DNA of 64,000 nt from Psammoneis japonica (Eukaryota): the NCBI GenBank assembly GCA_008632985.1, contig QPGO01000059.1, positions 1 through 64,000 of the forward strand. Direction: 5' to 3'. Of this stretch, positions 18,610 through 62,029 are shown in pieces. Position numbers and translations under genes: made by a program. The notes beneath the pieces are model-generated. The model did not search any database, had not been told where the DNA came from, and worked only from the letters and a program-made list of their open reading frames with translations. Numbering within the stretch: position 1 is the stretch's first letter; each line of letters begins with the position of its first letter.

Positions 18610-21518
18610 TCTTCCCTTCCATGATTCGAATCATGAGAATCATGAGGGACTAAAAAAAAATTTAAATTTCCAATGACGAGGACAAAGGGAAACCCAGATG
18701 TTGGGGGTAAAACCCTTGACCTCAGCTTCGAAACGGTGCGACGCGCCGAACATTGAGATGTTCCACCACATGAGGCGCTCGTTGGACCGCAAAGGTGCCA
18801 CCAGCATGCAGGTGAGGACCGTGCGCTCAAGGAGCGAGTTTGGCAGGATCCGCGGTCTTGATGAGAATTTGACCACCGATTTGAAAATCCGCCAGTGCCG
18901 GGAGATCCAAAATCACATCGCGTTGGAATGCCATTGCACCCGGCAAAACCTTGAAAGCACGGGAAACCGCACATCACATGGCATGCACAGCTGTCGCCAA
19001 TGCATTGTCTGCCAATTGATTGGCCTGTCCAATGTTCTGTGGAGGACAAATGTGAAGCAAAGTGCACAAGACATTTCCAACAGTTTGATGCACATGTTCA
19101 CATGCCGCATTGGCCTGTGGATTTTGAGAAGTGGTTGGTGCATCATCCACTCCTGCCTGTTGCAGCAACAGTTGAAAATTTCTCCAATGAATTCTCCTCT
19201 GTTGTCATGAAATGCAATGGTTGGGACGAGGATGATGAGACAACCAACAGTTCTGAAATTGCTGAGCAATGTGAGACAAGGTTTTGTTCTCAATGCAAAT
19301 GAGTTCAGCGACATTTGAAACAGTGTCAACACAAGTCAGCGCATTGAATTCAATCTCTTGGCCTTGGATTTTAATCTTCCAAGGGCCAATGAGATCAACT
19401 GCCACTTCATTCCAAGGCAACAAAGACGCTTCACGTTCTGGCAGATCCCCACATCCAGGACCCAAAGTTTTCAAACATTGACAATCAGCACACAGGAAAG
19501 ATTCACAAGATTGACGCAAAGCAGGATGATGGAAATGCGCGCCAATGGCAGAGTGCATTCGATGCACTCCTGCGTGCCCCAAAATTCTGTGGTGCCAACG
19601 CATGTCAGGCAGCAAGGCATTGGAGCACAGATTTTCCACAAAGTTGTTCAATGACCAAGCGCTCGGGATGCTGTTGTTGCATTTGGTTCAATTGTCCATC
19701 AACAAATTGATGTTCCTGAATTTGTTGCACAGTTGTTGGGTTTTGCATTTCCTCAAGAGAGGGACAGTTTAAGAGTGATTCGCACAATTCCAGATTGTCC
19801 ACCACGGAGGAGCAAAAGAGGGACGATTGATCCTGACAACATGAAAATTGAGACACGTGACCCAACTCATCAAGCTCTTCTTCATGAGGCAACATTGCAG
19901 GGTTGATCGTCTTAAAGTCAATCAGCTTGCCCTTGTCAGGAGCACACTTCCCTTCCATTGGAGGATCCATGCAAGGCAGACAAGAGAAACAATCAGCCAA
20001 AATGTTGTCCTTGCCATCAATGCATGCAAAAGTGGGAGCAAAATCTTCCAAGAAAAGATGCCGCCTGAGTGCTCGTTGAGAATTGAGTGTGCGAAAGGTG
20101 AGATTTTTATGACCTGCAAACACAGCACAGTCAACAACCGAATGACATTGAACGAAACTCTTTGAAACACATTGCCACTGCCAACAATTCTTTTTTGATG
20201 GCAGAGCAGTTCTGTTGTGCTGCGCTGAGCTTTCAAGACCAGCATGCTGCCGGTTTGCTGTCTTGCATTGTCACCACACCCATTTGACAGTCGGAAGAAT
20301 CAGCATGGACATGGAAGGGCTTGTCATGATTGGGGCAGACCCAAAGGGTGTCATCCAACATCAAGGTCTTCATGTCCTCGAAGGCTTTTTGACACTCGGG
20401 CATCCACTCCAACTTGCTTTTGCCTGTCAGCTTCATGAGCAGAGCAAGTGTGTGAGAGCAATGAGGCCACACATTGCAACAGCAGGTTGCTGCACCAATG
20501 AACGAACGGAGCTGTGTCATGGTTCGCGGAGCTTGCACCCGCAGCACTGCCTTGACTTTCTTCTTCCACAGTCAAACTCCTGTTGGTGTGAGCCAATGGC
20601 CCAGAAAATCAGTCTCTTGGATGCACCACTCACATTTGAGTGGGTTGACTTTGAGATCATTTTCGTCCAGCCTGGATGACAGCTCATCAAGTCAATGCAT
20701 GTGAGCAGCAAATGAATCATCAAATTGAGCAATGTCGTCAATGCAGGCTTTGACATCAAGGCCTTTCACCACTTTTTCAACAATGGCTTGAGCAACATCC
20801 AGAGGCATTTTCAAAGCCATCACCAGTCAACAATGCCAAAATTTCCCAAATGGAGTGACAACAGTGCACAAATCCTTGGACTCTTCATCAAGCTTGACAC
20901 CATGGCAGAACACAGTCAAATCAAACTTTGTTAAAAACTTGCAGCCTGATTGTTGGTGAATGACATCTGAACAATCAGCAGAGGGCACACCTTGCGCTTG
21001 AGCACCTTGTTGAGCTCTCAAAAATCGGACATCCATCGGACTTGACCATCTTTCTTGGGAGCAACGAAGGTTCCTGCCGCCCACTCTGTTGGTCCCACAG
21101 GTTCCAGTGCACCAATGTTGCAAGAATGCTTCAATTCCTTCTTGAATGCCTCTTCATCCCTCTTGGATGCTTCACAAGCTTTAGAATGGAAGGGAACGGC
21201 ATTGGGGTCAACTTCCAAATGAACTTTCTCATGCAGGCATTTGCCAAGGGTTCCATCAAAAAGAGTTTTGTGCCGTTCAAGCACACACTGGAGCTGGTCT
21301 TGTTGTTCTGAGGTCAAATGAGATTGAGGCTGAGCCACTGCCTCCATTGATGCTTTCTCATGCTTCGCATCCAGCACAAAAGATTGACCTGGGAGTTTGT
21401 CACTGCATTCATCCTCCTCATGACTGTTGAGTGCATCTGACCAATTTTGCATCTGGCTCCAATGGTTGGCTTGTTTCATCAGAAGAGTGACATCGAACCA
21501 TTTCACAACTCCGAATCG

Positions 21519-23154
21519 TTCCAAGGGACATTTGGTTGGACAATTGCCATTTCTGGCATTCCATTGGTGGATTGTGCCAGCCCTGTCTTTGGTTTCAGAC
21601 CGTCTTTGCACCGTGCCAAAGCCTGTGGATCCCTTTTGGTCCTTCATTTTCTCTTTCGAATGATGGAGTGCTGTCAGCACGCATTTCTTCTTGGCGTGGA
21701 CCTGCATTGTGACAACTCCTCTTTAGCTCAGAATGTTTCAAACTTTGCGTCATTGCCTCCCTTGCCAGACAATCCAGAAGAATCTAAAAGTGAGTGTGGT
21801 TGTCATCAACGGCACCACATTGCAAATGCTCTTTCAGCTGAATGGGATGTCATTCATGAGATCTGCCAGTCCCTGCAGCAAATCTCGGATTTCTCTGTAA
21901 GAGGATGTTCCGGCACCTTTGTTGAGTTTCATTGGGCGAAAGGACATCAAGACAACGTCCTTCCTTTTGAGTCTCTGTCTCTTCTGGCAAAGTTGAATGT
22001 TCACGCAGATCGGCTGGTGGTGAGTCGACACCAACGCCAATGCTCCGGGGACTCTCTTCTTGCTCCTTGGATGCCCCACTGCCTGGCAAACTTGGTTGTT
22101 CAGAACAAGACGGTTTCTTGAACTTCAAACCCATCCTCCATTGCAAAGCTTCCAGCTCAGCTCTCATCACCTGCATGAAAGAGAAATGCTGTTGGTCTGA
22201 CATCGTGTTCGACTCGATTGATTGGATGGTCCATTCTAAATTGATGGCTGGGAACATTCGGCGGAAGGTCAGTGCAGTCAAATTGGTTCAAGATCTGCCA
22301 CCAACCAACAAGACAGTGCGCCAACACAATCCTGTCCAACCTGACTGTTGCATTCATTGCCAGCATCAGATGGAGGATAGAGACCACATTCTCTGATGTC
22401 CTCACAACGAGAATTGGTGCAGAAAATTTCTACAAGGTCTGCGGAAAAAGTGCGACAACATGCACACCTCCCCCTTGAGATTTGTGACTTGCTCATGTTG
22501 TCTCTTGAAGCATGGTTTTGCAACAAGATCCAATGTTCAGATGGTCTTCATCGCAGTGTGACATCCGCACTGCATTCTCAGGAGGCCATTGGATGGCGAC
22601 ACATTTTCAGTGGACGTTTTTTGTGTCAGTGGAACGTGTCCCAATGCTCTTGTCTGTTGTCCAGCGGCATTTGTCAAGAGCTCACGGACAAAGAACAATG
22701 CCCAGATTGGGCTGCTGCAGTGGGAAATTTCATTTGGGATCCCAAAGGTGGGATCTGTGGGATTCCCACAATGACGATGCACATGGCCATGATTTGGAGA
22801 CCAGAAAATCATCACAATGTAGAGACGCCGAAGCAGAGGTCAAAGTGATTTGCTCAAGATCGGACGAGTGTCTGGCCAAGGACAGATCACAACTGTCAGA
22901 CTTGGTCAAAGAGCATCTTACACACTCAACACACCATCTGCAAAACTGGGTTGCCATGGTCAAACCTGTGTTTGAGTCAAGCATCAAGGAAGCCAAACGT
23001 CTGGCTGTTTGCGGCACTGGAGCCATTGCAAGCCGCTTTGGCACAGCATCGCCTGCTGGTGATGCTGACTCTGGCCAATCGCCACATGCTCCTGCTGCAC
23101 GGTCAGTGTGCCAGGGGTGTGGATTGGCTTGTTGCCACAGATTTTTGGTTTTAT
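21519..23154 (+). mobile_element. 5'-truncated non-LTR retrotransposon (RNase H-bearing LINE) nested in Gypsy pol
   Basis: GTFGW, LHCDN, AEWDVI, HWAKGHQD, LNVHADRL RNase H motifs, CxxC..EDRDHIL knuckle; flanked by imperfect 20-bp repeats at 21499-21518 and 23155-23174. Confidence 0.75.
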
Positions 23155-25167
23155 CATTTCATGGCTCCGAATCGAAAATCGAGTGTCATTCCAGCCTTGG
23201 AAAGGAAGTCTTGGCCCAACATCATGTCATGCTTGCATGGCGCATCAAACACTTGGGCTGCAATGCCATCAACTTGTTTCAACTTGTCAAATTCGGGTGG
23301 CACCAGATCTTTCACAATGGCATGTCGGGAGGACTCATGTCGTCCAGCTGCCGTCTGAAAACTGAGTCGTCCTGATTCATTCACAGTGGGATTGGCTGCC
23401 TTCAGAAGAACTCGGGAGTGAACAAGGGTGTCAGTGCCTCCTGAATCTAATGGCGCACACACAATGCTGGCCTGCTCTCTTGGCCTTGAATTGTGCACGC
23501 CGCCATCAACGTTGTTGGAACCACATTCAGTGGTTTGGGAGTCACAGTTTTTGGGGTTGGCACAGTGCACTCCAAAGGGCCACACAGCACAAGATTCCAT
23601 TGGGTCTCCCACATCTTCATCAACATCAAAACACATGTTTTCATCACAACCACACAAAACACAAAAAGATTGAGCGACACACTCTGACTTGGGCACTTCC
23701 GTCCCTTGTCAATTACGCCAACTTCGTTGGCCTTGCGGGAGTCGACCACTCGATTGCACCCGTTTCCACCTTGCATCTGGCAAGGCCCTCCTTGATCAAA
23801 ATGGTGCAACTCCAATTGCCAGCCACCAGGAGGAGCTGCTCCAGCCAGATTTCCATGGCCTTGGGCATCACCACTGGCTTGGGTGCCATTTTGATTTTGA
23901 CAGCAAGATCTGCCACCTTGGGAATTCTGATGGTCATTTTGATTTCCATGTCCTCGGCCTCCACAGCCTTGGTCACCACAGTTGCCACAACCACCACGGC
24001 CTTGGAAGTTGCCATGACCTCCTTGGCCTTGCAATCCTCTTCCCTTGGCAGTTGCCATGGCCTCCTCCACAACCTCTGCCACGACCTCCACCACGGTCTG
24101 ACCTTGGTTGACAGTTTTGGCTCTCCGGATTCAAAATGCAATCCTTCCACTTGTGATCATGGTTGGCATGTGCAGGGCATCCAGCCTCTGAATCGACTCA
24201 AGTGCCACTCCCATGAGTGTGCCTTGAAGCTTGAGACAAGGAGCCACTGCTTTTCCTCTTCTTCTCTTGCTTCTTTGAGTTGCCTTTGTCCGCGAAGGAC
24301 TTTTTGTTGTTCGTGCAGCTGACAATCTCAGCAAGACTGTCGTTGGCCATCAAACGGCCTGCTTGGGTGTGCATCTCATGCCATGGACGAGAAAAGCTGT
24401 CAAATGTCAACTTTTTCTTCTGGGCTTCGTTTGCTTGCGGAGTGCCCCCCAGCGACTTGTTAGAGCACCAAATCAGCATCTCCATGTGATCAGCATGTGC
24501 CTGCACTTTGGATTTGAATGGCTTTTTCAAGGTTGGCAAGCACTCAATCATGGCATCACGTGCCTCATCATCACAGTGAGACAAGCAAAAACGATTTGTC
24601 TCCTGATTGAAATGCACAACCGTCTCATCTGCATCTGCAATCGAGTCACAGTCAAATTTGCCCACTTGTCCTCAGCAGCATCAGTCAATGCTTCTTCAAA
24701 ACTTTCAAACAACTCCTCGCCAGTGGCAAACTCCAATTTTGCAGCAATTTTACAAAAACAATCCTCAACAAACAACAACGCTTCAATGCCATGGGTGCCA
24801 TCAAAATGCGGACACTTTTTGGCATGAGTGCCACCATCATCATGCGATTGCAACAATTTTGCATCTTCCAAATCAGAATGTTCAAATTTTGCTTTGCAGC
24901 CAATGCACGGCTCTTTGAATGATTCACTCATGACACAGAATAGAATGCAACTGTTCAATGGTCCTCTCAAGGGCTTCTGCCTTTGACTCCAAGTGCTGCA
25001 CTCAACTTGCCAAGTTTTGTTTGTGCCGCTTTTGCTGTTGCACTTGTTTCTGATGCTCAACAGCCCAAACTCCTGCTCTTGCTTGCAGTTCTCTCTTCTC
25101 ATGTTTGGTCAATCTGTTTGCATTGTTCCCAGTCTCCATCCAGTTCTTGAGTCAACTGCAATTGCAG

Positions 25168-25280
25168 TGCAAGGTCCAACAAGACAAAGACTTCAGCGAC
25201 AACAGAATTGTGAGCAAAAGACCAAGGCAACAAGGTCACTGAGATTGAAATCAGCGAAGCCCTTTGCAATGGCTTTTGCA
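25168..25280 (-). repeat. Gypsy 5' LTR (TA and CG converted)
   Basis: TG...CA ends; aligns with 18493-18609. Confidence 0.8.
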
Positions 25281-25701
25281 ATGTCTGATGGAATCATTGA
25301 CACTGTGTGTCAGAAAATGAGGTGCACGTCACTGCATCATTTGGCTCTCATGGTCATCATGCAGAGATGGAATCTCCTGCGAAAGTGCATGACCAAGCAT
25401 GCGGTGCACAAGTGTTTGATGAGCCTCGGGTGTGAAGAACCCATTTTGAATGATTTTGCAGTGATTTTGAGAACACAATGTGTGGAGCGATAGAAGCTGC
25501 AGGTGCTTCTTGTGCAATGGTCCTTCCAATCTGATGTTTGGCTTTAAAGTGATCATTTGTGACGTTTTGCCCGCAGGGGTGGACAGGCACGTGTGCCCCG
25601 TGGCAACTCGACCATCCCCTGCTCCATCCAACGCAATGCATGCACATTGCATGCTGTCAACTGGCTGGGCCTGCTCCATCCCCATGTCTTGGCGCCCAAG
25701 C

Positions 25702-25955
25702 CAAGGAACCCCCTCGAGAAAGTTTGCAGCCCCCCAGGAATGCAAGCGCAAGAAGTTTCCAGAGCACCAGGAACCCCTGCAAGAAAGTTTGCAGCCCCCC
25801 CAGGAATGCAACCGCGGGAAGTTTCTAGAGCATCAGGAACCCACACAAGAAAGTTTGTAGCCCCACAGGAGTGCAACCGCAAGAAGTTTGTAGAATGTCA
25901 GGAACCCCTGCGAGAAAGTTTGTGGCCCCCCAGGAACCCCCCGCAAAAAAGTTGG
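25702..25955. repeat. Minisatellite, ~65-bp unit of two related halves, ~3.5 copies
   Basis: Recurring caggaaccc...gaaagtttgcagcccccc and caggaatgcaa.cgc..gaagttt. Confidence 0.8.
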
Positions 25956-26681
25956 AATCCTGTGAGTGGCAATGCGAGCTGAATGTTGCACATGGGATTC
26001 AATGGTTGTGACGCAATGACACATGTGCACTGCCAAAAATGCATGAAAAATGGACAACGCAGATCTGAAAGACTTGTGCAAAAACAAGAATGACCCTCAC
26101 CAAATTTTCATGGCGACAAAAGCCGCTCGCGTTGCTCCCACACTTTTCTGTGCTGCAAAACCAAGGCATGAATCAACACGTCTTGTCAATTGGACATTGA
26201 AATGCAACAATCTGGATCATCCATGACAAACTTGGTGCTCAAATCGAAGGCGCACTCTTGACACCAAAAATGATGCCCTGCAGAAACCCGCGCAAATTCC
26301 ACACAGAAATGAAATCACCCATCAACAACCCTGTTGCAAACGGCAACCGGCAATGCCACACAAACCACCTCAGCAATCAACCAACATGTCACGAGGTGTG
26401 TCAGACAATGAATGACACGACCCTGCCAACAAAAGTGCCACACCACACAAACGGCAATGACAGTGAGCAGGTCATTGTCAATGATGCGCATTTGTGCGAC
26501 TCCGATGGCCACGGATTGAGAATTTCATGCTGTGGGGGTGAAAGTGAAGACACACGGGCCGCAGACAAAAAAAAGCATGACCTTTGGTCATGCATTGTGC
26601 AGGAAAGCACCAGAAACAATTGTTTCAAGTGTGTCTGTCCATCCACATCTGAGTGCCAACTTCTTGCAAATCAAAACACCT

Positions 26682-27325
26682 CACTCTGCAGCCATTGTCT
26701 GTCTTTGTGTGTCATCGTTTGTCAGCCATTCTTTTTCTGTGATGCAGTCCACAGACTCTGATGGCAAACACACCTTTTGGTTCTCCGTGCCGTGCCGCAC
26801 CGCGCCGCACCTCAGGAAATGTGAAAGCACAGCGTGCTGCAACCAACAGAACCACAAACACAAAACAACACCAGCGATTGGCATTCTCGGCCCAGTTTGC
26901 CACAACAATGCCATCCACTGTGCCAAAAACAGACCAAGTGAAGAGTGGTGCAAACAATTTCAATGAGTGAGATGCTTTTTGCGCCGATGAGATGCCATGG
27001 TCAGTCGATGGCGACATCCGCACTTGCATCCATTGGTTTTTTGTGGGTCTGGTGTTTGTTTTCAAAGTCACACATGAACAAATGACATGTTGTCCGTTGC
27101 ACAATTGGATTTGTTTGACAATTTAATTTTGAAATTGTGCTGACATGTGCAACACACAAGCCCGTTGAGCCTGTTGGTTGCAGCATGCTGTGCTTTTAAA
27201 TTTCCTGAGGTGCTGCGCAGAGAATGAAAAGGTGTGTTTGCCATCAGAGGGCATGGGAGACCCGCGCCAAGCAAAGCAAGGGACAGACAAAGCAGGGGAC
27301 AGACAGACCCGATGGCTGCAGAGTG
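26682..27325. repeat. Imperfect long inverted repeat (foldback/MITE-like)
   Basis: 26756-26849 is the gapped reverse complement of 27171-27250; outer cactctgcagccat / atggctgcagagtg also pair. Confidence 0.7.
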
Positions 27326-28848
27326 CAAAATGCCATTGGTCAGGCAGCATTTCAATTGACTTCCCAAAAAGTCATTGGCCCTGATCACTCTCCGGTGTGT
27401 GTTGTGCACTTTTCTGCACAATTTTGCATTTTTCCTCATGTGAAATGTTGTTTGTGAGCCATGCAACATTTTTGAATGACCCCTGTTGTCTGCTTTGAAC
27501 TTGAGACAGTTGAGTGCTGAGAAACGATGACATCTTCACTGTTCACTTCCTCACTCCTCAAAGGCACCCAACGGCACCTCCTGCTCTGGTGGCCAGCTGC
27601 AGCAAAGTCTCTCTCTCTGGCCAGCAGCAGAAAGCAGATGGAGCACTGCTTTTTAGAGCAGAGGTTGTGCATGAGGAAAAAAATGGAAATTTCAATGGAG
27701 GTGGTCAGCAAAGCACTGCTGCAACTTCTTGGGGCAATGGTTGGCAACACTTGTGACAAATGCCACCACAACTTTCCTTGCAAAAGACAAATCTGCAGCA
27801 CTGGAGATCCAATGCAACAAATCATGCAGGGACTTTCTTTTTCTGGGACACACAGAGATCTTTGTTTTTGGAGATGACACTGTGCCGGACCCATGCTTGG
27901 CCTTGTTTGAGCTGTTCTTCATTGTTTTTGTTCATCAAAGACACAGATGTCACTTTTGGGAGGACGACTGGTTGGGTGAGGGCCTTGGTTTGATGAGAAA
28001 CGGAGTTGTGATTTTGCACAAATCAAAAAATGGGTCTAATTGCTGTTGTCAGCCATTTTTGAGCGGCAAAACCCACACTTTGATGTTCATTCATTCATTT
28101 CACTCAATCTCATGACTGTCTTTGATGGCATCGACTCACAACAGTCATGAAAAGATTTTGATGTCTTGGTGTGCTGTGGGTGGGGGCTGTGTCAAGAAAA
28201 ACATCGTCCTCTTGCATCTGCAAGAAACACCAAAAAGCATGGAATTGAATTGATCCATGCTTGGATGTTTGTTCATCCAATGCACATTTTCTGTTGCTTC
28301 CCTTTGTCAGCATCTCTTCATTGTAAAAGTGGAAAGCATCCCCTGTCTTGTGCATGCCATGTGTTTGTTTTGTGGCAAGCAAGGTTGGTTGCTCTCGTGT
28401 GGTCTCGCACTGGCATGTTTTGGCTGATGCTGACCCACACTTTGATGTTTGCTCACATTCATTTCCTCTCTTCGCTCACACTTCTTTGATCTGATCTCTT
28501 CTTTGCAGTTTCAAAAAGCTTGTTTTGTCTTGGACACAGTTTTGGTGATCTTTCATGCCAACTGGCGGCAACAGCAACCATCACACCAACTGGCGGCAAG
28601 AACCATCATGCCCATCAATGAGAGCTGAGAACAAGAGTGCTGCATCTCATGGGCGCATCCCTCCTCATGATGCAGGATGCCTTCTGCAGCATCGCATTGG
28701 ATGCCAGCCATGGCACTGCATCCAGTGCTGTCTGCAATGTCATGTTGGGTGCCAGCTGTTGCATGGCTTTCAATGCTGTCTACATTGTTGCATCGAATGC
28801 TGTCCATCAAGTGCCAATGTCACCATTTTATCACAGCCACCCGGCCAT

Positions 28849-31964: not shown

Positions 31965-32353
31965 GACGCGTTCCAGGTCTAGGTGGGACCTCGTGCTGCT
32001 GAACTGTGACATCGATAGTTTTTTGAATCTCGTCGTATGTCGCGCACGCAGAATTCTACGTGATTTTTTGATATTTTGTGTCATTTTACGGTACACTTAT
32101 TGAGCGATCCGTCCAAAAACTTTTGACATTTTTTGTTACAGCGCGATTCTATAATGTCTTAAGAATCGCGTAGGGCAGGTGCATTTGCAAAAACGTCGAG
32201 TGGTAAGAGGCATAATTGCACCACAAACTTGGCCGTTTATTTGATGTTGAAGACAAATGTGTCCATTAATTAAATTCTCGTACTACGGAGCTCGCACGTA
32301 GAATTCTACGGGCCAAATGTCACACGGAGTCCCACCCAGGGCTGGAACGCGTC
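31965..32353 (+). mobile_element. MITE copy 1 (TA-retaining), TSD ACAA
   Basis: TIR GACGCGTTCCAGGTCTAGGTGGGAC...GTCCCACCCAGGGCTGGAACGCGTC with a 4-bp flanking duplication. Confidence 0.9.
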
Positions 32354-33017
32354 ACAATGAAACCGCCCAGTTGGAAATGGGAGATAAATGCCGACAAAAC
32401 TGTCGTCAGAGACTTGCACGTTTGGCCAAGTTTTGGAAGGAGAATGACCCTGAACATTGTTCTCTTGGCGTTAGAGAGGTTTCTGCTGAAGACCTTTGCG
32501 ATCCAACTGAGCACTGCTTCAATCGGTGCCGAGAAGACCTTGTGCATGCAGGCATGAATGACCAGCTTGCACTTCATTTCTCAGTGTCAAACAAGAAGAA
32601 GGCCAACGGAAAGCTCAAGTCATGTGACGACATCCAAAAACACAAAGACGCCATGATGTGGGGTGCCAAGACGGCAGACGAGCACTTGCCTGAGAGCTTC
32701 TGTGTGATGTTTGACAAGCTCCTCGCCGGGCACAAGAAGGAACATGCTCAAGCAAAAAAGAGAGGGGATGCAGATGAAAACTCTGCTGATCCTGTTCCCG
32801 TTTCCTTGCACAAGCTCATGCTGAAATGGAGCACAGAAGCCAACAACGTGTTTGTGCAGTTCTGGACCACTGCCCAGTGGAATTTCATGGCCCGGTCAAC
32901 ATCCACAGATCCCTTGTGGATGAAGAATTTCAAACTGGGTGCGGACAGCTTGATTGGAAAGCATGCAGAGAGGCTTTCAGAGAAAAACACACATGCCAAC
33001 CCACTGGATTGGACGAT

Positions 33018-45140: not shown

Positions 45141-45148
45141 CAGGAGGA

Positions 45149-51100: not shown

Positions 51101-51977
51101 CAAAGTGGACACCTCGATCAGGTGCATCACATCTTCGCATGCCTCAAGAAGCACCACAATGCGGAGATGGTGTTTGTCCCCAGTGATCCTGCAATTGATG
51201 AGTCCCCATTTGCTCAACAGGATTGGACGACCTCCGAATTTGGACTTGCTGCGAAGGAGGAGGCACCTGGGGACATGCCTCAAGCTCGAGGCATGGGTGT
51301 GATCGTCACTGCACATGTTGACGCGGATCACGCAGGCGATTCGATTGCTCGCCGATCGCGCACTGGTTTTCTTGTTTGTCTGAACTCTGTGCCTGTTTGC
51401 TGGTTGTCCAAGAAGCAAACAGGCATCAAGATGAGCTCGTTTGGGTCAGAGTTTGCCAGCATGAAGCAATGCACTGAGTGCATTCGAGGTCTTCGGCACA
51501 AGCTTCGGATGATGGGGATTCCGGTCACTGGTCCAGCCCATGTCTTGGGTGACAGCCAGTCGGTTCTGGCAAACACCTCCATCCCCGACTCAACGTTGAA
51601 GAAGAAATGTCACAGTTTGGCCCATCACTTTGTCCGTGAGGGTGCGGCCCGGGATGAGTGGCGGACTGCGCACATCAACACGCATTTGAACCCAAGTGAC
51701 TCATTGGCCAAGGCGCCACCTTCAGGGGAGAAGTGCAACCAATTCATTCGGATGATTCTACATTGTGTTGGAAGGAAGGTGGTGCAGGCTGCGCACCGCC
51801 GAACCACCTGCCATTGCAGAGGGTTTTATTTTGGAGTTCCCCACCGGTGGAGTGGGTTTTTGTTTGGAATTCCCCACTTGATGGAAGTTTGCATGGAGTT
51901 CGCCATTGCATGATGATGACACATCCCTTTGTTGGCAATCTAGATTGACAACATGACCAAGTCTAGATTGAGGGGAG

Positions 51978-52163
51978 TGTTTTGGTCTGTCTGTGTGTGG
52001 ACAGACAAGGCTGCTGACGTGTTTGTTGGCTCACTTCTTAGAAAGCATGACTTTGATGATGTCCACGACATTTTGAAGACTTTGGCAGAATGCAGGATAG
52101 ATCCAATCTAGGATCCTTCTCACAATTCAAATGGATCTTGGTGTTTTTGATGCGGATTTGTTT
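51978..52163 (+). repeat. Copia 3' LTR
   Basis: Immediately after the PPT; direct repeat of the 5' LTR; last bases uncertain. Confidence 0.85.
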
Positions 52164-53684
52164 TGTCGAGTCACTTTTGGCAAGGAAATGAGCACCTGTT
52201 GTTGCCAAACAAAGGTTTTGGCAGTGCCATTGTCGTTTGTGTGCGGAAATCAAAATGCTTGATGTTTGGGTGATGTCACATGTTCCCAACAATTTAGATT
52301 CGTCTGGATTTTTTTAAGATGTTGCTTGCAAAAAATCAACTGACTTCTGGGTTCCTCAATGCACTGAAGCAAGACTGGATTTGAGTGATTGGGGCCTGGT
52401 CACTGGACTGCAACAGCAGCAAAAGCATTGTGTGCTCAACAAGACAATGCAATTGTCATCTCATTGTGAGATCCAAGTGCTGATGGTGAGAGAGACAAAG
52501 CAGCCATTGAAACAGCAACTGTTGCATTCCCGCCAACGTCATTGCACATGACTGACAGACGACCATGTTCTGTCCTTTCTTCTTCCTTTTGATGCACCAG
52601 TTGGAAATTTTGGTGCCAAAAGTGCTTCAAAGTTCCAGACTGACAGCCAAGCCAAAAACTGTCTGGGGGTTTGAAGCCTGACAATGAAAGCAGAATCCAG
52701 GGTGCAAATCCTCCTGGGTTTGCCTTCATCAACAACTGGCTGATGCCGCGTGACAATGCAACAGTGTTCTCCAAGCAGCCAAAAAGGGCATGGCACAAAC
52801 AAATGCAAGTTCAAAGAGCTGAGTGAACTTGAGCAAACCTTCAGGCAAGTCTCAGATTTGCAAACGAGTTTCATCACAGCCGTTGGAATCAAACCGTTGG
52901 CTTTCGAATGACAACAAGATGCACAAAAACAGGGTCCTGTTGTTTGCTGTGTCTGAGAGACAACCTCCGGGTGGCAGAGCTCAAGCAAGAGATGATCAAT
53001 CTCCGGACAAATGCTCCACAGTCACAGCCCAGATGCGCAACCTGGACAGCAGTCGATCAGTCATCTCTGCCAGCTTTTGCAAAGTGGTTCTCTAGAGTTG
53101 CAACAAGTGAACTTGCAGTCATCTGTGTCTTGCGCTTTCAAGGCTTCTGTTGCGTGACGTCCGACGCACATCAGTTGTTCCATTCATTCATGTTGCTGTG
53201 GTTTGTGAAGAGACAAAAATCGCAATCCAAGCATGCACCAGCATGCACACCTGACAACTGCACTGGCAATTGCTTGCAATTCAAGAGAATCAGTGTGTTG
53301 CTGAGCTGCACTGCAGTGGCTCTGCCCACCAATGGGTGGCTGCTAGAGTGGGGCCCTGCAGGTGAAAGCAGGGCTCTCCGCACTGATGCTGCATGTTGCC
53401 ACCGCATGCATGGTGCCATCTTCAAGATGTTGCTGTCATTCTGGCGCTGTGCATGGCCGCGCCGCATCACAGCAATCAATCATCAGGTGGCATCTGCGCA
53501 ATGCCAGGGCCATCTGAAAACATCTGTTGTGCACTGTTCCAAGGCAATGTTTTGTGCTGAGCATGAGATGGGGAGCTTGTTCTGCACACGAGGAATGAGG
53601 AAGAGCGCGATCCACTGCAATCATCACGAGTGCTGACACAACCACAAACTCCACCATGCATCCCGATGAAGCCTGCCATCAAGG

Positions 53685-55700
53685 TCAGCCGTTGGGTTTC
53701 TTCATTCGGAGCCCTTCATCAGCTTCGCACACTCCCACAAACTTTGCAGCCTCTGCCCAACAAACCTTTCCCGATGCTCCCTGCTTCTTGATTTGTCGAA
53801 AACTCTGGAGGCAGGATTTGGTGGACTGGGGTGTGCATGGGCAGACATCTGTCAAATGCACTGCTGCAATGTTTTGTGCTGCCTGGCAGATTCCACGCAG
53901 TTTTGTCGGATGGCAAATGTTGCCTTTGGCATGCTGACAGCGAGGCAAATTTGTGGCGCAATGCACGCACCTTGTCCCCACTTGTCCGACACGAATCTGT
54001 TTCTTTCTGCCTTGGATGTTGCAAGTGGAGTCATCTTCGGCCACCTCGAAATGTTCCAACTGCTTCTGAGCAAGGATCTGATGTTCTGACAGATCATCAA
54101 CATCGGATGACAAGAACATGCAAATGCCCCCGGATTTTGTTCTGGGAAACAAATCATGATGAGCAGGAGCTGCAGTGGCTTGAAAAGAAAACCTCTCAGG
54201 GGCTCCTGATGGAGGATGGTTAGCTGGCCCAGAAAAGCTGCTGGCTGACCAGTCACTGCGTAAGGACGGACAGCAGGCTGCTGCTGGATCGGGAATGCTG
54301 TCGGAATGACCACAGTGGGACGCTGCAATGACAGCATTGGATTGAGTGCCATTGCAGCCTGCACCGCTGGTGTGCTCGGGTGCAGCCCGATTTGTTGTGT
54401 CACTGCTGCGGGCAGCAGAATGTTTGCGTGTTGACTTGCTGCCATTGCAGCATGGTGCTGACCTTCTTGTTGCAGCAAGCTGAGCATGCCATGATGAGGA
54501 AGACCAGCCATGGTCCTTGGTGGCACATCGACATTTCGTGGACATTGATCCGCTCTTGAGTCAACTCTTGGTCTCGTCGCAAACTCTGCTCTCAGTGACA
54601 AAGATGATGGTGCCAACGATGAGTTGTTGCTGGTCATGGCAACCATGCCCGACTGTCCCCCAATTGCTGCTGTTCTCCCTCTCCCACCACTGCTGCTGTG
54701 AGCAGTGTTGCCAGAGATGCCATTTCCACGAACTGAGCAAGCGACATTTGATGCCGCAACATGATCCTCGCTGGCCTCTTGGCATCCTCGTTGCATGATG
54801 CCCATGGAATTCACGCGATGCTTGCGACGGCTTTTGTTGGAGGAGGAGGATGAGGACGAGGTGGTTGTTGCGGTGGGGCTGGCAGCAGCAGTGCTGGCAA
54901 GCTGACAAGCAGAAGGAGCATCACTGGATGTGATGCTCCTGTTTGTTGAGATTCCAGCACAGCAAGTGACGTAGAAATCATCTCTTTGCACTGTCTTTTC
55001 TTGGGATTTGTCACTTCTGCCTCTCCTCCATCAGAACAGTCTTCAGCAGCTTTCAAGCAAGAGGATGGCCCACTGGCCTGAGTGGGAGCCACCTTGTCAT
55101 TTGCAGTCATTTGTTGTTTGCTCCTGTCGGGCTTCGTGGCGGCACCTTGTTGTTCCATTGCACTTGTTGCATCTTCATTTTCGAGTTGCTTCACATCTTG
55201 AACTGGAATCGTGTTCGCACGAGCGGCTGGCTCCTTGGTCTCCACTGCTCTTGTTGGTGGCACAATTTCTCGACGAAGAGTGCCGTCGCTTTTTGACGCT
55301 CTGCCGCTGGTTTTGACAGTTTTCTCCATGTTGTTCTTTCAACATGATGATGATTCAAGCACGAAACTCTGGACTCAGCATTGTCACACCATTCAGATGG
55401 CTCCTTCACCACCGGCACTGGTGCAGTTGTTTTCAGTGCACTGTCCGCAGAGCTTTTTTGTTTACGTTTGGCGATTGGCTGGCGACCTGAAAGCACGGAT
55501 TCAAGGTGCAGCTCTGAGCAACATTGGAGAAAGGGACTTTTCAAGAAACACCGTGACGTCGCATTGTCGGTGGAATTGCACATGCGGAGAAAATTTTGTT
55601 TGACAACTTTTGTGCATTCTCCTGATCAATGCTGAGTTGACTCATTGTTGCCAGCATTTGCAATGACAAGGAACAAGGAAACAACTGTTGGCAATGACCG
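53685..55700 (-). pseudogene. Decayed QVGxRCxHC-domain paralog, with duplicated 3' flank at 53045-53685
   Basis: LSEHQILAQKQLEHFEVAEDD..GQVGTRCVHC..GICQAAQNIAAVHL; flank aligns with 12600-13255. Confidence 0.8.
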
Positions 55701-55759
55701 CTGCTGACATGGCGAAGGATGAAGGACGCAATCAGCAATCGAACCGTGTTGCAGCTTCA

Positions 55760-57868
55760 ACGCACCTGCGAGCCACATGCGGGAAAGAAAGAGAGAAAAG
55801 AGAGTCGTCAAGACGAATGAATTGAGTGGCAACTGAAGGCAGTTTCCCACGTTCCATGTCGAGTTGCGGTGAAGAGCAATGGCGCTGATGGCGAAGAGGC
55901 GAAAAGGGACTGCCATTTTCATCAAGAACTCGTTCCACCAATGACAAGCGTGTCTGAGTGCCGCCAAGAGGAAGAGTTCGGCATTGCCCAGAGCAGTGCT
56001 GACACGATTGCAGCTCAAGATGCAAAGCGACTTGCAAATGAATGTGGAACAAGCACGATGCAATGCCAGGGCACCGACATGTCACCCATCCAGAGCAAAC
56101 GGTCTACACCTGCCAATGCCAATGTTGATCCTGCTCTCGCTCGTCCCACCTCTCGTCTGAAGGCTGCAGCAGAAGAGGACGATGCTGGTGGACGAGAGGC
56201 AGAAGTGGCAAATTGCGAAAGGCAGTGCAAAGAAGGGATTTCTAAGTCGCTCACAATGTTGCAACAACGAACAAGAAGAGCAGCACCAAGTCCTCCTCCT
56301 GATGCTCGTCGTCATTGTCCAAACAGTGTTCCCTCCTTCTCCTCGTCATCCTCGAACAACATTTTCTGTGAGAAGTCCAGCATGCAACGAGCAAGACGCC
56401 ACGGCCAAGACACCACCGGCGACGACAATCACGCAGCATTGTCAAGTGTCTCCAGCTCAGTGGCAGAAACAGCACCTCTGGGGACACTGCAGCAAGTGGC
56501 AGCGGTGGGACGAGGACGAGAAGCGCAACAACAACCACGGGAATGACATCAGCTGGGCCAGAAGACAACGCGACCAGCTGTTGCTCATCATCCTCTTCAT
56601 CGAGAGGGCTCTTTTCGACGAGGCCCAGAAGAAGCAATCACACCGGGCTGGGTCAGGATGATCAGGATGCCTCCCACTCAATCAGAAACGACAACTGCAC
56701 CAACACTTTGCGAGAAGATGAACACTGCCCCCCAATCCATCAACAAAATTCATTCCTCTCACATTCTTGCATGCTTCTTACCCTCCCCAACATGCTGGAG
56801 CACATGACTCATCCAGAAGAACGTCCTCACATGCCACCAAGGGACCAACATGACAAGTTTTTCTTCAAGGAACACGAAGACAAGTGCCAGCTGCTTCAGA
56901 TGAAGAAAGCAAAGCCGCCAACAATGGCATCAACTTTGCCTCAAGAATGAATCCAAATCCAAGAAATGCTGATCTGCCACCAGGGCATGACCTTCCTCAT
57001 GAACATGTGCTCAGTTTGCAACAAGGTCAGGAGAGGCATCGTCATCAGCAACACCATGCCACAGCAATGGCTCGACAGGCAAGCATGGCGCCACTGCACC
57101 CAGCAGTGACTCAACCATTTTTTCCTTTGCCAAGTTTGTCAGCACAGCCTGCAATGGTGTTTAATCCAATGGCACCATTGCAGTGTTCAACAAGCGTCAT
57201 TCCGATCACATCCCTGAATGTGCTTGCTCCTCCTCACACAATGCATGGTCAACCAGCAGCTCTTCCGGGCTTGGTTTGCCAGCCTCCATCAGCAGCTCCA
57301 GTGATTTCTCATCCAACCACTGCATCCCACAGTGCCCCGAGTGGACCCACCCATTTCGATTTGTTCCCCAGAACAAAATCCGGCGGCATTTGCATGTCTT
57401 TGTTGTCTGATCCTGACAATCTGACGGACTGTCAGGTCCTTGCCCCGGAAACAGTTAGAACATTTCGAAGCAACCAAAGGTGACTCCAAATGCACCACCC
57501 AAGGGAGAAAGAAAAAGACACATGAAGGACAAGTGGGGACAAGGTGCATGCATTGCACTGTGAAGCCTGATGTCGAGCATTCAAAAGGTGGCGTTTGCCA
57601 TCCGATGAAACTCAAGAGGATTTGCCAAGCCGCACAAAATGTTGCAGCTGCGCATTTGACAGACGCCTGTAGATGCACACCCCAGTCTACCAAGTCCGAC
57701 CTCCAGAGCCTTCGTCCAATCAAGAAGTTGGCAGCAGCAGGCAAGGTTTGTTGGTCAGAGGCTGCAAAGTTTGCGGAACTTTACGAAACGGAAGTGGGAC
57801 TTAGAATGAAGTCGGTGGCTGACAGCCGTGCTTCTGGCGGCCTGGCTCACTCTGCTCTGAGCGAATGA
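55760..57868 (+). pseudogene. Decayed QVGxRCxHC-domain paralog, head-to-head with the previous one
   Basis: LTDCQVLA/RKQLEHFEATKGD..GQVGTRCMHC..RICQAAQNVAAAHL; N-terminal part homologous to the 54811-55329 ORF. Confidence 0.8.
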
Positions 57869-58279
57869 GGTCTTCATTGAGCTGCACACATTTCCGTCTG
57901 TGTGATTTAAAAGACGTGTGCTGGCATCTGCTCAAGAGGAATGTGCCCAAAGTGGGGCCACCGACAGGCAAGCATCGATCGCTTCACTTGTGCATGCGGT
58001 GTCGCTCTGCTGCACTTGGAAATTCGTGGAATTCCCATTGTTGTTTCAGGTTGTCAGGTGGAATTTCTAATGTCACACACATCGCAGGAACAATTTGAAT
58101 TTACCGCAGCTGCTGTTCATGCTCATTGTGCGAACAAGAGGGATTTCTTAGACAATCTCTCTGCTGGTGGCCACCAGCTGGCTCCAGAAGCAGGTCGGTC
58201 TGGCAACTGCCGGTGCTGTGCAGTGCACATCGACCCTTGATCAAACAGAGTGGACTCTAGAAGACAGAATCATCTCCGA

Positions 58280-59594
58280 GGAATCTGTTTCTTTCTGCCT
58301 TGGATGTTGCAAGTGCAGTCATCTTCGGTCGCCTCGAAATGTTCTAACTGCTTCCGAGCAAGGATCTGACATTCCAACAGTTTGTCAACATCAGATGACA
58401 AGAACATGCAATTGCCCCCAGGTTTTGTTCTGGGAAACAAATCATGATGAGCAGGGCTGTGTTGCCCACTGTGAGGTGCTGCAGTGGCTCGAAAAGAAAA
58501 CCTCTCAGGGGCTTCTGATGGAGGATGGTCAACCGGGCCTGCAAGAGCTGCTGGCTGACCAGTCATTGCGCAAGGATGGACAGCAGGCTGCTGCTGGATC
58601 GGGAACACTGTCGGAATGACCACAGTGAGATGCTGCAATGACAGCATTGGATCAAGTGCCGTTGCAGCCTGCACCACTGGTGTGCTTGGGTGAGGCCCGA
58701 TTTGTTGTGTTGCTCCTGATGGCAGCAGAATGTTTGCTTGTTGACTTGCTGCTGTTGCAGCACAGTGCTGACCTTCTTGTCGCAGCAAGCCGAGCACACC
58801 ATGACGGGTTCCAGTCCCAGGTGGGACTCCGTGTGACATTGGGCCCGCAGAACTCTGCGTGCGAGCTCCACAGTGAATTCATTGAGCAATGAAAATGCAA
58901 ATGATCACCAACAGAAAAAGAGGCAATTTTACGAACATGTCTCCTCCTTCATGCTTGGTGTGCATCATCAACAGTTTGCCCGGGTGTGTTCTTCAGACAT
59001 TGAAGAACATGCCCAGAGTGTTTTCATTCTCATGAATGTTGAAAATGGAAAGCCTTTGGCTTCGCAAAACAGGGAGCATGAAACAATTTCGTAGAACACA
59101 ACACGTAGAAATGTGCGTGCGCGACATGCGACGTGATCCAAAAAACTGTTGATGTCACAGTGCAGCAGTGTGAGGTCCCACCTGGAGCTGGAACGCGTCC
59201 CATGATGAGGAAGACTGGCCACAGTCCTTGGTGGCATGTCAACATTTCTTGGATGTTGATCCGTTCTTGAGTCGACTCTTGGTCTCATTGCAAACTCTGC
59301 TCTCAGTTGTGACAGTGATGCCAACGATGAGTTGTTGCTGGTCTGCGACATTTTGAAATCATCATCATTGCATGAATCAACCCAGGCATTGTGCAAAGAA
59401 AGGATTTCATCTGTAAGAGGCACTGGTGTCCCACACTTGCAGTGGTTTTCCATGACAAACAAAGTCTGCCACATTTTGCGCTTCTCCTCCTCCTGGTCCT
59501 CTTCATCATCAAATGACACCACCGGCAACGTGTTGCCACAGATTTGGCTCGCCCTGTTTGATGCCGTGTCTCCACTTGCTTGTGCGTGATTGCC
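58280..59594 (-). pseudogene. 3'-truncated decayed QVGxRCxHC-domain paralog with MITE insertion
   Basis: LLECQILARKQLEHFEATEDD..QGRKKQI; DNA aligns with 13563-14437. Confidence 0.8.
58803..59199 (-). mobile_element. MITE copy 5 (second subfamily), TSD CCAT
   Basis: The empty site is visible in paralogs (gccatgatgaggaagacc at ~14045 and ~54488). Confidence 0.92.
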
Positions 59595-60331
59595 NNNNNN
59601 NNNNNNNNNNNNNNNNNNNNNNNNNNNNNNNNNNNNNNNNNNNNNNNNNNNNNNNNNNNNNNNNNNNNNNNNNNNNNNNNNNNNNNNNNNNNNNNNNNNN
59701 NNNNNNNNNNNNNNNNNNNNNNNNNNNNNNNNNNNNNNNNNNNNNNNNNNNNNNNNNNNNNNNNNNNNNNNNNNNNNNNNNNNNNNNNNNNNNNNNNNNN
59801 NNNNNNNNNNNNNNNNNNNNNNNNNNNNNNNNNNNNNNNNNNNNNNNNNNNNNNNNNNNNNNNNNNNNNNNNNNNNNNNNNNNNNNNNNNNNNNNNNNNN
59901 NNNNNNNNNNNNNNNNNNNNNNNNNNNNNNNNNNNNNNNNNNNNNNNNNNNNNNNNNNNNNNNNNNNNNNNNNNNNNNNNNNNNNNNNNNNNNNNNNNNN
60001 NNNNNNNNNNNNNNNNNNNNNNNNNNNNNNNNNNNNNNNNNNNNNNNNNNNNNNNNNNNNNNNNNNNNNNNNNNNNNNNNNNNNNNNNNNNNNNNNNNNN
60101 NNNNNNNNNNNNNNNNNNNNNNNNNNNNNNNNNNNNNNNNNNNNNNNNNNNNNNNNNNNNNNNNNNNNNNNNNNNNNNNNNNNNNNNNNNNNNNNNNNNN
60201 NNNNNNNNNNNNNNNNNNNNNNNNNNNNNNNNNNNNNNNNNNNNNNNNNNNNNNNNNNNNNNNNNNNNNNNNNNNNNNNNNNNNNNNNNNNNNNNNNNNN
60301 NNNNNNNNNNNNNNNNNNNNNNNNNNNNNNN

Positions 60332-61505
60332 TCAGGAAGGAACTCCACAAGGCTGCCTTTCAGCTCTCCAAGACACAGAGCATCGATGAGATTTTCTGGG
60401 GTGCGATCCGGATCTCTTTGTCCTCCAATCTTGAAAAACTTAAACTGCTGGAAAGAGAGCTCTGCGTCGTCCTGGAACATGTTGTGGTGAATTTGGTCTG
60501 CCTTGAGAGTCGCACCAACGATGCTTGATCAACAATTGCCATGATCGCTGACTGCCCCTTTGGATTGCCGTGAAGCCCTCGGCACACTTGCAACATTGAA
60601 TTGTCCACAGAAACAGAGGAGATCCAAAGAACGCGGATCTTCACCTTGCTTCGTTGTTGCCTCAGAAATGTGCAGCTCAAAATTCTGTTGCATCAGCAAG
60701 CAACATCTCTTCAATTGTTCCATGATCTCTCTAAGAATGAAACAAATTAGAGTCAGATCAGCAATCATGGAGGCCCTGTCATTTGCGCTTGCAGTGCTCC
60801 ACATTTTCTTCTTGTCAAAGCTGTGCAAGTTGAAAGTGTCGTCGTTGCGGTCTTCCACGGAGAATTTGTCCTCCATCAAAACAAAGCTTTCGAATTTGCC
60901 AGTGTGCTCCTCCGACAATTGTTTCCACTCATCGTCATTTTCGAGGTCTTCCTCGAGACTGTCTGTGATTCACAACACAGGTGAGAGCTTCATGACTTGC
61001 ATTGCTGGCTTCTGTTTTGGCAGGAAGAGCAGCGTCTTTGTCTTCAATTTCAAATTAGCACTGGTGCAACAAAAAGAGAAGCATGGATGCTGCGGATGAG
61101 TCATCAGGAGAGAATGACAGATGATTGGCATCGAGTTCCACGCTGCATCCGACAGAAGCCGAGAGATCTGAATGGCTGGGAATCTTGCACGACCCTCCCA
61201 AAGGAGACGTCGCCCCAGTTTGCTTTGCTGCAAATTCTGAGACCTGCATCAAACAAGCAAGCAACCACATCAGGCATGAGACAATCCCCCACGGAAGGGG
61301 CAAAAGAATGATTCTCGATCTGCAAAGCGGTTGGAAAGGCCGGCCACACACAAGCGGAAGGAAGTCTTTGGAGCCTTTGAAACTGCAACCAATTTTGAAG
61401 AGTCTGATGCGCTTCTCCGGCGGTGGGGCGTGGTCGACATCATGGCATGATTCATTCCAGCCATGTGTCGGCAGGCCGCATGATGGTGCTTGGTGCGTCA
61501 TCTGA
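60332..61505. pseudogene. Decayed duplicate of 15260-15885 joined to a decayed fragment of the RNA ligase-kinase 3' end
   Basis: 61130-61505 aligns with ~17790-18370 with an internal deletion (PTEAERSEWLGILHDPPKGDVA). Confidence 0.85.
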
Positions 61506-62029
61506 GAACTGACAAGAAACGATGATGTGAGAAATGAAACATGGAAATTTCAATCTCTCGTTGGGTGTGCGCGTGATGGCAGAAGACGGAAAGAACGAAA
61601 CAAACACGCATGGACAACCAACAAAATACCTCATCGCTGACAAACGAACCAAGGGAACAGACTGGTTCTCAACGTCCATTGTGATTCCTTTGGTGTGAGG
61701 ATGAGAGCAACAGACCAACCCGGGAAGGAAAAAAGGTTCAACTGCAACAGCAAAAATCTTTGAAACGCATAAATTATTTAGTGATGACGTACTTCTCTGT
61801 GGAAGAATTCCATAAATAATCAAAACAAGCTCAGTAGAAATGACCGTTTTGATGACGTCATAAATAAATGCTGTATTCCACAGGATTTTTTGTCACGCCC
61901 ACATAAATTCACAACTTTCAAAGTTCGTTGCTGAAACTAAGAACATCCCTAAAGCATGTGCTCTATTGTTTATGTATAAGCGTAAACGGCAATAGGCGAC
62001 GATTTTCTTTATCTAGGTCGCACATCACA

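Follow-up and report, generated by a model that had tools for sequence, protein, structure and literature searches.

How can the TpA dinucleotide be almost erased from transposons and duplicated segments while the genes lying between them keep it at a normal level? The question is raised by contig QPGO01000059.1 (assembly GCA_008632985.1), whose positions 1-64,000 were analysed as one 64-kb stretch, here called the window. An initial annotation had proposed that TpA was turned into TpG or CpA in the repeats alone, in the direction opposite to that of fungal repeat-induced point mutation (RIP), and knew of no description of such a process. On this last point it was mistaken, since a hypermutation from A/T to G/C confined to TpA has been reported in the marine alga Bigelowiella natans (Mettrop et al., bioRxiv 10.64898/2026.01.13.699255); a full-text literature search, whose coverage leaves out most subscription journals, returned no description besides this preprint. 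The answer proposed here is that a DNA-level, locally targeted hypermutation of TpA to TpG/CpA has very probably acted on silenced domains made up of transposons and duplicates. The evidence that follows establishes the signature and its polarity, and likewise that it is specific for TpA, arises at the level of DNA and is restricted to domains.

The depletion was measured as a sliding-window observed/expected ratio (o/e), as per-kb dinucleotide ratios and as the number of TA per 250 nt, followed by segmentation. The o/e of TpA is about 0.05 (0-3 TA per 250 nt) in 18701-31950, 32401-35950 and 42251-61700 and 0.5-0.9 in the gene stretches between the blocks, which bears out the near absence of TA and the abundance of TG and CA first noticed in the transposon and duplicate blocks beside normal genes. 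Pooled TA-poor DNA (37,841 bp) contains 153 TpA against 1,454 expected at the TA-normal level (Poisson p printed as 0), with o/e values of 0.06 for TA, 1.63 for CA, 1.65 for TG and 0.52 for CG; the corresponding values in pooled TA-normal DNA (21,200 bp) are 0.61, 1.14, 1.11 and 0.95. Expressed as frequencies in TA-poor versus TA-normal DNA, TA is 0.0040 versus 0.0416, CG is 0.032 versus 0.054 and CA+TG is 0.205 versus 0.140, and because these figures roughly balance, the gain of CA+TG is about equal to the losses of TA and CG together. The GC content is 0.497 in the blocks and 0.476 in TA-normal DNA. The segments concerned are as follows:

1-550, no strand: TA-poor block at the window edge, with 2 TA (o/e 0.06) and a CG o/e of 0.33
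13301-15900, no strand: TA-poor element within copy A of a segmental duplication (described below), with an N gap at 14438-15259; paralogous to 53700-54635 and 58281-61034
18701-31950, no strand: TA-poor block 1, with 41 TA in 13,250 bp (o/e 0.05) and a CG o/e of 0.41
32401-35950, no strand: TA-poor block 2, with 19 TA (o/e 0.08) and a CG o/e of 0.73
38901-42250, forward strand: TA-normal gene island with an open reading frame (ORF) at 39101-41902 (933 aa, Tyr 2.9%), an internal control between two TA-poor blocks
42251-61700, no strand: TA-poor block 3, with 76 TA outside the N gap 59595-60331 (o/e 0.06-0.07) and a CG o/e of 0.54-0.70

The borders of TA-poor DNA are sharp (550/621, 13188/13298, ~15900, 18708/19372, ~42250 and 61627/61770). 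At the left of block 1, TA is dense until 18708 and the next TA stands at 19372; at the right of block 3, there is a single TA at 61627 and normal density from 61770; downstream of block 2, 35951-38900 is patchy, with partial depletion. The range 18720-61620 originally given to the signature thus takes in the long TA-poor blocks but is not uniform, as it includes TA-normal islands (31965-32353 and 38901-42250) and the patchy stretch, and the same signature is also found beyond it, at 1-550 and 13301-15900.

The direction of the change can be read from copies that kept their TA and copies that lost them, which are provided by a segmental duplication (copy A, 12603-15883 and 18003-18326; copy B, 53048-54635, 58281-61034 and 61149-61473) and by three copies of a miniature inverted-repeat transposable element (MITE):

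12603-13260, forward strand: left flank of copy A, with 40 TA (o/e 0.89), the unmutated reference for copy B 53048-53710
53048-54635, forward strand: left part of copy B, TA-poor throughout, with 2 TA where copy A has 40
58281-61034, forward strand: right part of copy B, TA-poor, paralogous to 13563-15883
16098-18300, forward strand: RNA-ligase/kinase gene, an intact and TA-normal host gene encoding TPR, RNA ligase PF09414 (Rnl2-type) and P-loop kinase domains
61149-61473, forward strand: copy B pseudo-copy of the 3' end of this gene, with 0 TA against 7 in the gene, and frameshifted
31965-32353, forward strand: MITE copy 1, 389 bp, ending in terminal inverted repeats of 31 nt and containing a further inverted pair of 19 nt; about 23 TA, hence TA-normal inside TA-poor DNA
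33018-33407, forward strand: MITE copy 2, in which 17 of 22 TA of copy 1 are changed (TG 9, CA 8)
34586-35014, forward strand: MITE copy 3, in which 13 of 22 TA of copy 1 are changed (CA 9, TG 4)

The last ~100 codons of the RNA-ligase/kinase gene (18003-18326) are the ancestral partner of the pseudo-copy, in which all seven TA are changed (TG 3, CA 4). When the gene end in copy A is read with an X in place of a 1-bp frameshift, its alignment with eight homologues reaches right to their ends, and at its TA codons it keeps the residues common to them: L and Y in 'ALVYF', R in 'NR.GHET', I in 'ERII' and V in 'V.TF'. At these conserved sites, the pseudo-copy shows L>P, Y>C, R>H, I>M and V>A. Because copy A carries the residues of the homologues and copy B carries derived residues and a frameshift, the change runs from TA to TG/CA; the direction that had been proposed is therefore polarised by outgroup proteins and, with TA being destroyed, is indeed opposite to RIP. 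The alignment quoted in support of it is also exact, all nine TA of 12922-13010 reading TG or CA at 53300-53390.

Specificity was assessed in four alignments of TA-normal with TA-poor DNA, namely, two host-duplicate pairs, MITE copies 1 and 2, and MITE copies 1 and 3. Transitions affected A after T at 33 of 83 positions and other A at 13 of 323, T before A at 35 of 83 and other T at 16 of 365. In total, 68 of the 83 TA sites are changed, compared to 4.0-4.4% of the remaining A/T positions (odds ratios ~16; p 7e-16 and 2e-17), and the host-duplicate pairs alone give an odds ratio of 19.8 (p 3e-20). The excess of TA to TG/CA over other A:T to G:C transitions, without which the initial annotation would have given up its claim, is therefore present (odds ratio ~16, p ~1e-16).

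The products in these alignments are TG in 33 cases and CA in 35, and four runs tests for clustering of same-strand events gave P values of 0.14-1.0, with no long one-strand tracts; both strands are affected, in an interspersed manner. When the 22 TA of MITE copy 1 are traced, 5 are unchanged in all three copies, 9 show the same change in copies 2 and 3, 4 differ in product (TG or CA) between copies 2 and 3, 3 are changed in one copy only and 1 is TG in copy 2 and TT in copy 3. An additional column has CA, TG and TA in the three copies, and the product discordances lie at alignment columns 57, 90, 114, 285 and 388. Similar discordances exist between the two long terminal repeats (LTRs) of one element:

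45149-52158, forward strand: LTR element, in which direct repeats at 45149-45326 and 51978-52158 (178 bp, 6.8 kb apart) flank long ORFs

These repeats are identical at 165 of 178 positions, and their 13 differences are all transitions, without transversions: as read off the alignment, 8 make up four TG/CA discordances, 1 is TA/CA, 3 are CpG/TpG or CpG/CpA and 1 is of another kind. Since LTRs are identical at insertion and this divergence is nearly all of TA or CG type, it hints at a rate far above background, the hint coming from one LTR pair and a single background change (12/13 versus 1/13).

The flanking bases of TA matter too. With R for purine and Y for pyrimidine, RTAR became CA in 18 cases and TG in 7, and YTAY became TG in 17 and CA in 4 (Fisher p 4e-4; p 0.001 for this direction test without MITE copy 3). 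Survival, for which tetranucleotide figures were summed and compared by hand from pooled counts, was 3 in the blocks versus 236 in normal DNA for RTAY, 33 versus 217 for RTAR, 38 versus 264 for YTAY and 79 versus 164 for YTAR. Product direction and survival both indicate 5'-TAY-3' as the preferred site for A>G, equivalent to 5'-RTA-3' for T>C. The TadA and ADAT enzymes deaminate A34 of tRNA after the invariant U33, and bacterial TadA reads U-A-C-G. The substrate context of this family would fit TAY and is a possible lead.

Another loss goes on alongside that of TpA. The CpG o/e ranges from 0.2 to 0.8 among the blocks (pooled, 0.52 versus 0.95 in TA-normal DNA), and in the polarised alignments transitions are raised at G after C (22/109, versus 14/300 elsewhere) and not significantly so at C before G (8/108). 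This lopsided decay, CG>CA at 22/109 and CG>TG at 8/108, may be due to chance, context or a strand effect. Because CpG depletion varies among the blocks whereas TA depletion is uniform, the two losses appear to be two processes with different kinetics, and the CpG decay suggests that cytosine may be methylated in the same blocks. The conversion of CpG to TpG/CpA is a companion process and cannot account for the loss of TA: the decay of 5-methylcytosine (5mC) at CpG shares the same blocks and feeds TG and CA but cannot remove TpA. The excess of TG and CA that had been put down to TA loss does come from it, but in part also from this second process. Some basidiomycetes show a TCG>TTG hypermutation of repeats.

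What, then, is targeted? The label 'repeat-restricted', under which the signature was first recorded, holds insofar as the mutations stay within sharply bordered blocks of transposon and duplicate DNA, but the intact duplication partner is spared, the element of highest depth (the MITE at 31965-32353) keeps 23 TA and some TA-poor stretches are single-copy at 90% likeness. The copy A flanks 12603-13260 and 18003-18326 retain 40 and 7 TA, their copy B counterparts 2 and 0; both copies of the interior element 13301-15900 are poor in TA, and its copy A border lies inside the A/B homology. In run X1, contig depth is ~59 over the gene, 83-1,530 over most TA-poor bins and 55.5 over 30666-31256; most TA-poor bins are multi-copy at 90% likeness, and some are single-copy. 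The summed X1 contig depth over the MITE at 31965-32353 is 136,097, or ~2,300 times the single-copy level, summed contig depth not being copy number. A tiny run, X3, covers this MITE only, on both strands, with contigs of 47-154 nt. MITE copies 2 and 3 have had 60-77% of their TA converted. A homology trigger like that of RIP does not fit, because the intact partner is untouched and the MITE of highest depth is TA-normal within TA-poor DNA; the target looks like the silenced domain, together with the time spent there, and not homology as such.

The reliability of the sequence has to be considered before any mechanism. Six pieces from contigs built separately in run X1, each 688-1,974 nt long and of single-copy depth (55-66), span 20586-31485. 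They differ from the window by 2-10 letters apiece, and in reproducing the TA-poor sequence they dispose of the consensus artefact that the initial annotation had allowed for. Among the 13 single-contig X1 differences listed for 20063-25563, 1 restores TA and 10 are exchanges between CpG and TpG or CpA, the window having TG/CA and X1 having CG in 7 of these 10 and the reverse in 3. The CpG differences may reflect hypermutable CpG that is polymorphic, a divergence between alleles, or calling errors where sites are methylated, and part of the CpG depletion is uncertain to this extent. The RNA-ligase/kinase gene has a 1-bp frameshift in the window after 18113 (18113-18116), where copy B is one base longer; it looks like an assembly indel, because the X1 and X2 contigs each show one gap there. 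A gene for a CID-domain protein switches frame near 11826-11862, 'MAA' being readable in both frames, and there are several further 1-bp indels relative to X1. The assembly seems to carry residual indel errors.

A mechanism consistent with these findings would start from an ADAT2- or TadA-like deaminase which, guided by the silencing machinery, would deaminate adenine in DNA. The outcome would be A:T to G:C at TpA on either strand, stopping within ~50-100 bp of the domain borders. The action may be gradual or episodic and would continue until TA was nearly gone, with ordinary CpG decay alongside; RTAY sites would be lost first and YTAR sites last. As to the chemistry, we infer enzymatic adenine deamination with slightly less than even confidence and consider thymine oxidation a minority option, the rest being unassigned; between the two, adenine deamination is favoured over thymine modification.

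Every Tyr codon contains TA, and TAA>TGA stays a stop. Because a change of TA to TG/CA cannot make a stop from a sense codon, the elements are disabled by missense: all Tyr codons would become Cys or His, the ATA, GTA, CTA and TTA codons would be altered and TA-containing signals would be lost. Tyr indeed makes up 0-0.5% of residues in 11 long ORFs of TA-poor DNA (0-0.2% in the internal long ORFs of the LTR element), the range for 8 genes being 0.3-2.9%; the share of Cys and His is higher in these ORFs. TA-free DNA carries long open frames because only TGA stops remain, and many of the 33 ORFs of at least 250 aa in the window lie inside the blocks. In practice, TGA-only stops thus produce spurious ORFs of great length, and the mutated elements escape domain searches.

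Several other explanations have to be set against targeted TpA hypermutation. Pairwise alignment alone gives no direction, so that the TA-free state might be thought original and the TA-bearing copies the products of a RIP-like C>T change at CpA/TpG; yet residues conserved in eight homologues are encoded by the TA-bearing copy, the TA-free one being a fragment with a frameshift, and ordinary TA o/e values (0.6-0.9) are found in the TA-bearing copies, whereas 0.05 across 38 kb is an abnormal composition. The outgroup comparison rules out this reverse polarity, to which we give next to no credence. The slightly higher GC of the blocks would agree with a process that is not site-specific, such as GC-biased gene conversion, a bias of repair in repeats, selection that disfavours TA, or the arrival of TA-poor foreign DNA. 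However, A/T transitions outside TpA remain at the background of ~4%, host sequence that had been duplicated lost the TA of one copy and degraded pseudo-copies are under no selection for composition, which makes such processes very improbable. Still harder to believe is an artefact of assembly or base calling, for instance through the miscalling of modified bases in repeats: the window does have 1-bp indel errors relative to the X1 and X2 contigs, and the CpG-type majority of the X1 differences means that part of the CpG signal could be technical or polymorphic, but the independently built contigs of single-copy depth agree on the missing TA, with one difference in 13 restoring it, and the pattern respects element borders and alters codons in the pseudo-copy only. 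The editing of transposon transcripts by an ADAR- or ADAT-like enzyme, fixed by reverse transcription and re-insertion, would explain why U precedes the edited A, a habit of ADAR and ADAT as cited in the B. natans preprint, and two of the affected elements are LTR retroelements. It does not fit, because the MITEs and the segmental duplicate (with its intergenic DNA and gene 3' end) have no RNA intermediate and were mutated too; the two LTRs of one element diverged, with TG/CA discordances, after insertion; and a single edited RNA strand would yield one product, whereas TG and CA are here equal and interspersed. Its probability is accordingly put at very little.

The alternative that deserves most discussion takes thymine as the primary lesion: a dioxygenase of the TET/JBP type, or a similar enzyme, would modify T in 5'-RTA-3' of silenced DNA, and the resulting 5-hydroxymethyl- or 5-formyluracil would mispair with G to give T>C, read as A>G on the opposite strand. 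TpA is self-complementary, so that a T with R before it describes the data no worse than an A with Y after it. In the DNA of dinoflagellates and the telomeric repeats of kinetoplastids, hydroxylation of thymine favours TpA, and 5-formyluracil leads to T>C. The window showed neither an enzyme of this kind nor a modified base; sequence alone cannot separate the two models, and the only study found of this signature proposes adenine deamination, with ADAT2 as candidate, in the part of the preprint available. We regard the thymine route as rather unlikely and retain adenine deamination within the locally targeted TpA hypermutation favoured above.

Several points weigh against our reading as a whole or in its parts. 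The test of the extended motif reaches p 0.054 with the host pairs alone; it leans on MITE copies 2 and 3, whose nine shared same-direction changes may not be independent. TG/CA discordances without any TA-keeping copy could equally stem from an ancestral CG, and some of the residual TA may be new mutations rather than survivors. The X1 contigs come from the same sample as the window's best-matching run and from a library of unrecorded type, so that independence of platform is suggested only by the 1-bp indels. The enzyme is inferred, no deaminase gene lying within the 64-kb window, and the view that the host is not B. natans (see below) is drawn from gene structure and simple repeats only.

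The elements within the blocks could be classified in part. Block 1 contains the following:

19208-23708, reverse strand: colinear Ty3/Gypsy-type pol remnants, with a weak aspartyl protease at 23157-23708, an RT-RNase H at 20236-20571 and a weak integrase zinc-binding domain at 19208-19687

A Pfam search of 136 ORFs from the TA-poor blocks returned nothing beyond RT_RNaseH_2 and the weak aspartyl protease, and relaxing it to E <= 1 added one weak match, to the integrase zinc-binding domain. Two joints in X1 contigs, 18604>25284 and 18608>25294, were considered as an empty site of this Gypsy-like element and were not used, the shorter side having 24 letters and unmatched letters lying between. 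The LTR element at 45149-52158 we take by eye to be Copia-like, on account of 'DADHAGD...SKKQ', of 'HTDD' at the place of YxDD and of a tRNA-Met-like primer site after the left LTR; Pfam gave no RVT_2 match for it at E <= 1, which leaves the Copia-like look unconfirmed, and a PDB sequence search with ORF 50621-51910 gave no match. Tandem repeats occur within TA-poor blocks at 25704-25936 (65 bp, 3.6 copies) and 42771-42916 (72 bp, 2 copies).

The surrounding genes are ordinary cellular ones, encoding a methyltransferase, a WW protein, CIA30, Nop53, a CID protein and the RNA ligase/kinase. The fusion of TPR, RNA ligase and P-loop kinase in the last of these is conserved widely, with 1,948 representatives passing E <= 0.001 and the top one sharing 50% identity, and is not the architecture of fungal Trl1. 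The methyltransferase gene at 680-2092 (UPF0020/RlmKL-like, with weak N6_Mtase similarity) adjoins the TA-poor 1-550; its product is most likely an RNA methyltransferase, and nothing ties it to the mutation process. The WW-domain protein (2454-4151) starts with a hydrophobic stretch followed by '...SHA F...', which is reminiscent of the motif at which signal peptides are cleaved from plastid-targeted proteins in algae whose complex plastids are of red type, a very weak hint as to the lineage of the host. Two TA-normal ORFs, 39101-41902 (933 aa) and 61907-63850 (647 aa), match no Pfam family at E <= 0.01, and neither Rfam at the gathering threshold nor a tRNA scan matched anything in the window. 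Exact look-ups of 7 gene products in a collection of protein clusters gave no entry, and no RNA run is listed among the sequencing runs that match the window.

The closest known system is that of B. natans. In its mutation-accumulation lines, two viral inserts acquired 231 mutations, of which 230 were A>G or T>C, and the GC-biased mutations of the inserts are stated to have all fallen on TpA, at ~6e-7 per site per generation; this rate was ~1000-fold over background, in some lines only (bioRxiv 10.64898/2026.01.13.699255). The same preprint reports 124 TpA-poor, CpA+TpG-rich clusters in the genome, with reverse transcriptase and DDE domains enriched among TpA-poor coding sequences, and proposes an ADAT2-like protein as the enzyme. 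When its cut-offs were applied (a Rho_TpA of at most 0.43 together with a Rho_CpA+TpG of at least 1.52, the combined Rho being computed in a form of our own that may differ from the preprint's formula), 30 of 63 scorable 1-kb windows passed, in runs of 12, 6, 3, 5 and 3. As far as the available part of the preprint goes, the two systems share the restriction to TpA, the TpG and CpA products, the low TpA with high CpA+TpG and the confinement to certain stretches of an otherwise normal host genome. They differ in their targets, which are giant-virus and virophage inserts there but LTR elements, MITEs and duplicated host DNA here, and in the extent of the depletion, which is near saturation here (TA o/e 0.05) compared to a Rho of 0.45 in the nucleocytoplasmic large DNA virus region of B. 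natans. CpG decay accompanies the loss of TA in the window, whereas CpG goes unmentioned in the main text of the preprint; the preference for TAY/RTA and the sparing of an intact duplicate are added here to what that report describes; and the B. natans rate comes from mutation-accumulation lines, ours being a rough hint from one LTR pair.

Is the host itself B. natans? That species has 8 introns per gene on average and many (AC)n loci (PMC13746701, as far as this source was available). The genes of the window are unbroken over 544 and 319 aligned codons, a 1,874-nt X2 contig is colinear with the RNA-ligase/kinase gene and no (AC)n array was found in the window; because its genes are intron-free and (AC)n is absent, the host appears to be another, intron-poor organism. 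Five qualifying clusters in 64 kb would also be extreme compared to 124 in the 95 Mb of B. natans. On gene structure and simple-repeat content only, the window most likely represents a second host of B. natans-type TpA hypermutation.

If the host is indeed another one, the system would be common to several lineages, and comparative genomics could name the enzyme, of interest to both genome defence and base editing. More tentatively, one might imagine that the TpA eraser is not peculiar to one chlorarachniophyte but a wider and perhaps ancient eukaryotic genome defence, which would be the mirror image of RIP, based on an adenine deaminase or a thymine-modifying enzyme recruited to silenced chromatin. 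Transposons, viral inserts and stray duplicates would then be crippled through the loss of Tyr codons and TA signals without a stop being made, and a natural adenine editor of double-stranded DNA with a TAY preference might exist.

The known repeat-directed mutators, that is, RIP, APOBEC and 5mC decay, all drive C:G to T:A. A targeted mutator from A:T to G:C has been reported once before, in the 2026 preprint, where, in the part available, the enzyme is proposed only. To this, the window adds saturation on ordinary transposons and duplicated host DNA, action on DNA in place, the following of domains rather than homology and the three-base preference TAY = RTA. ADAR hyper-editing and APOBEC3 editing of cDNA are likewise of deaminase type, context-dependent and aimed at repeats, ADAR also favouring U before the edited A as the preprint cites it, but they act on RNA or single-stranded cDNA, through retro-copies and in strand-clustered fashion, whereas DNA transposons and a duplicate are mutated here, with the strands interspersed. 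RIP offers a parallel, with its heavy, transition-only mutation of transposons and duplicates in one dinucleotide context, the genes being left alone, and with its signature in dinucleotide indices. RIP depends on a cytosine methyltransferase of RID/Dim-2 type and on the sexual cycle. However, RIP changes C:G to T:A, mainly at CpA, and thereby creates TpA, raises AT, makes stops and affects both copies of a duplicate, whereas in the window A:T is changed to G:C at TpA, TpA is destroyed, no stops arise from sense codons and the intact partner stays unmutated.

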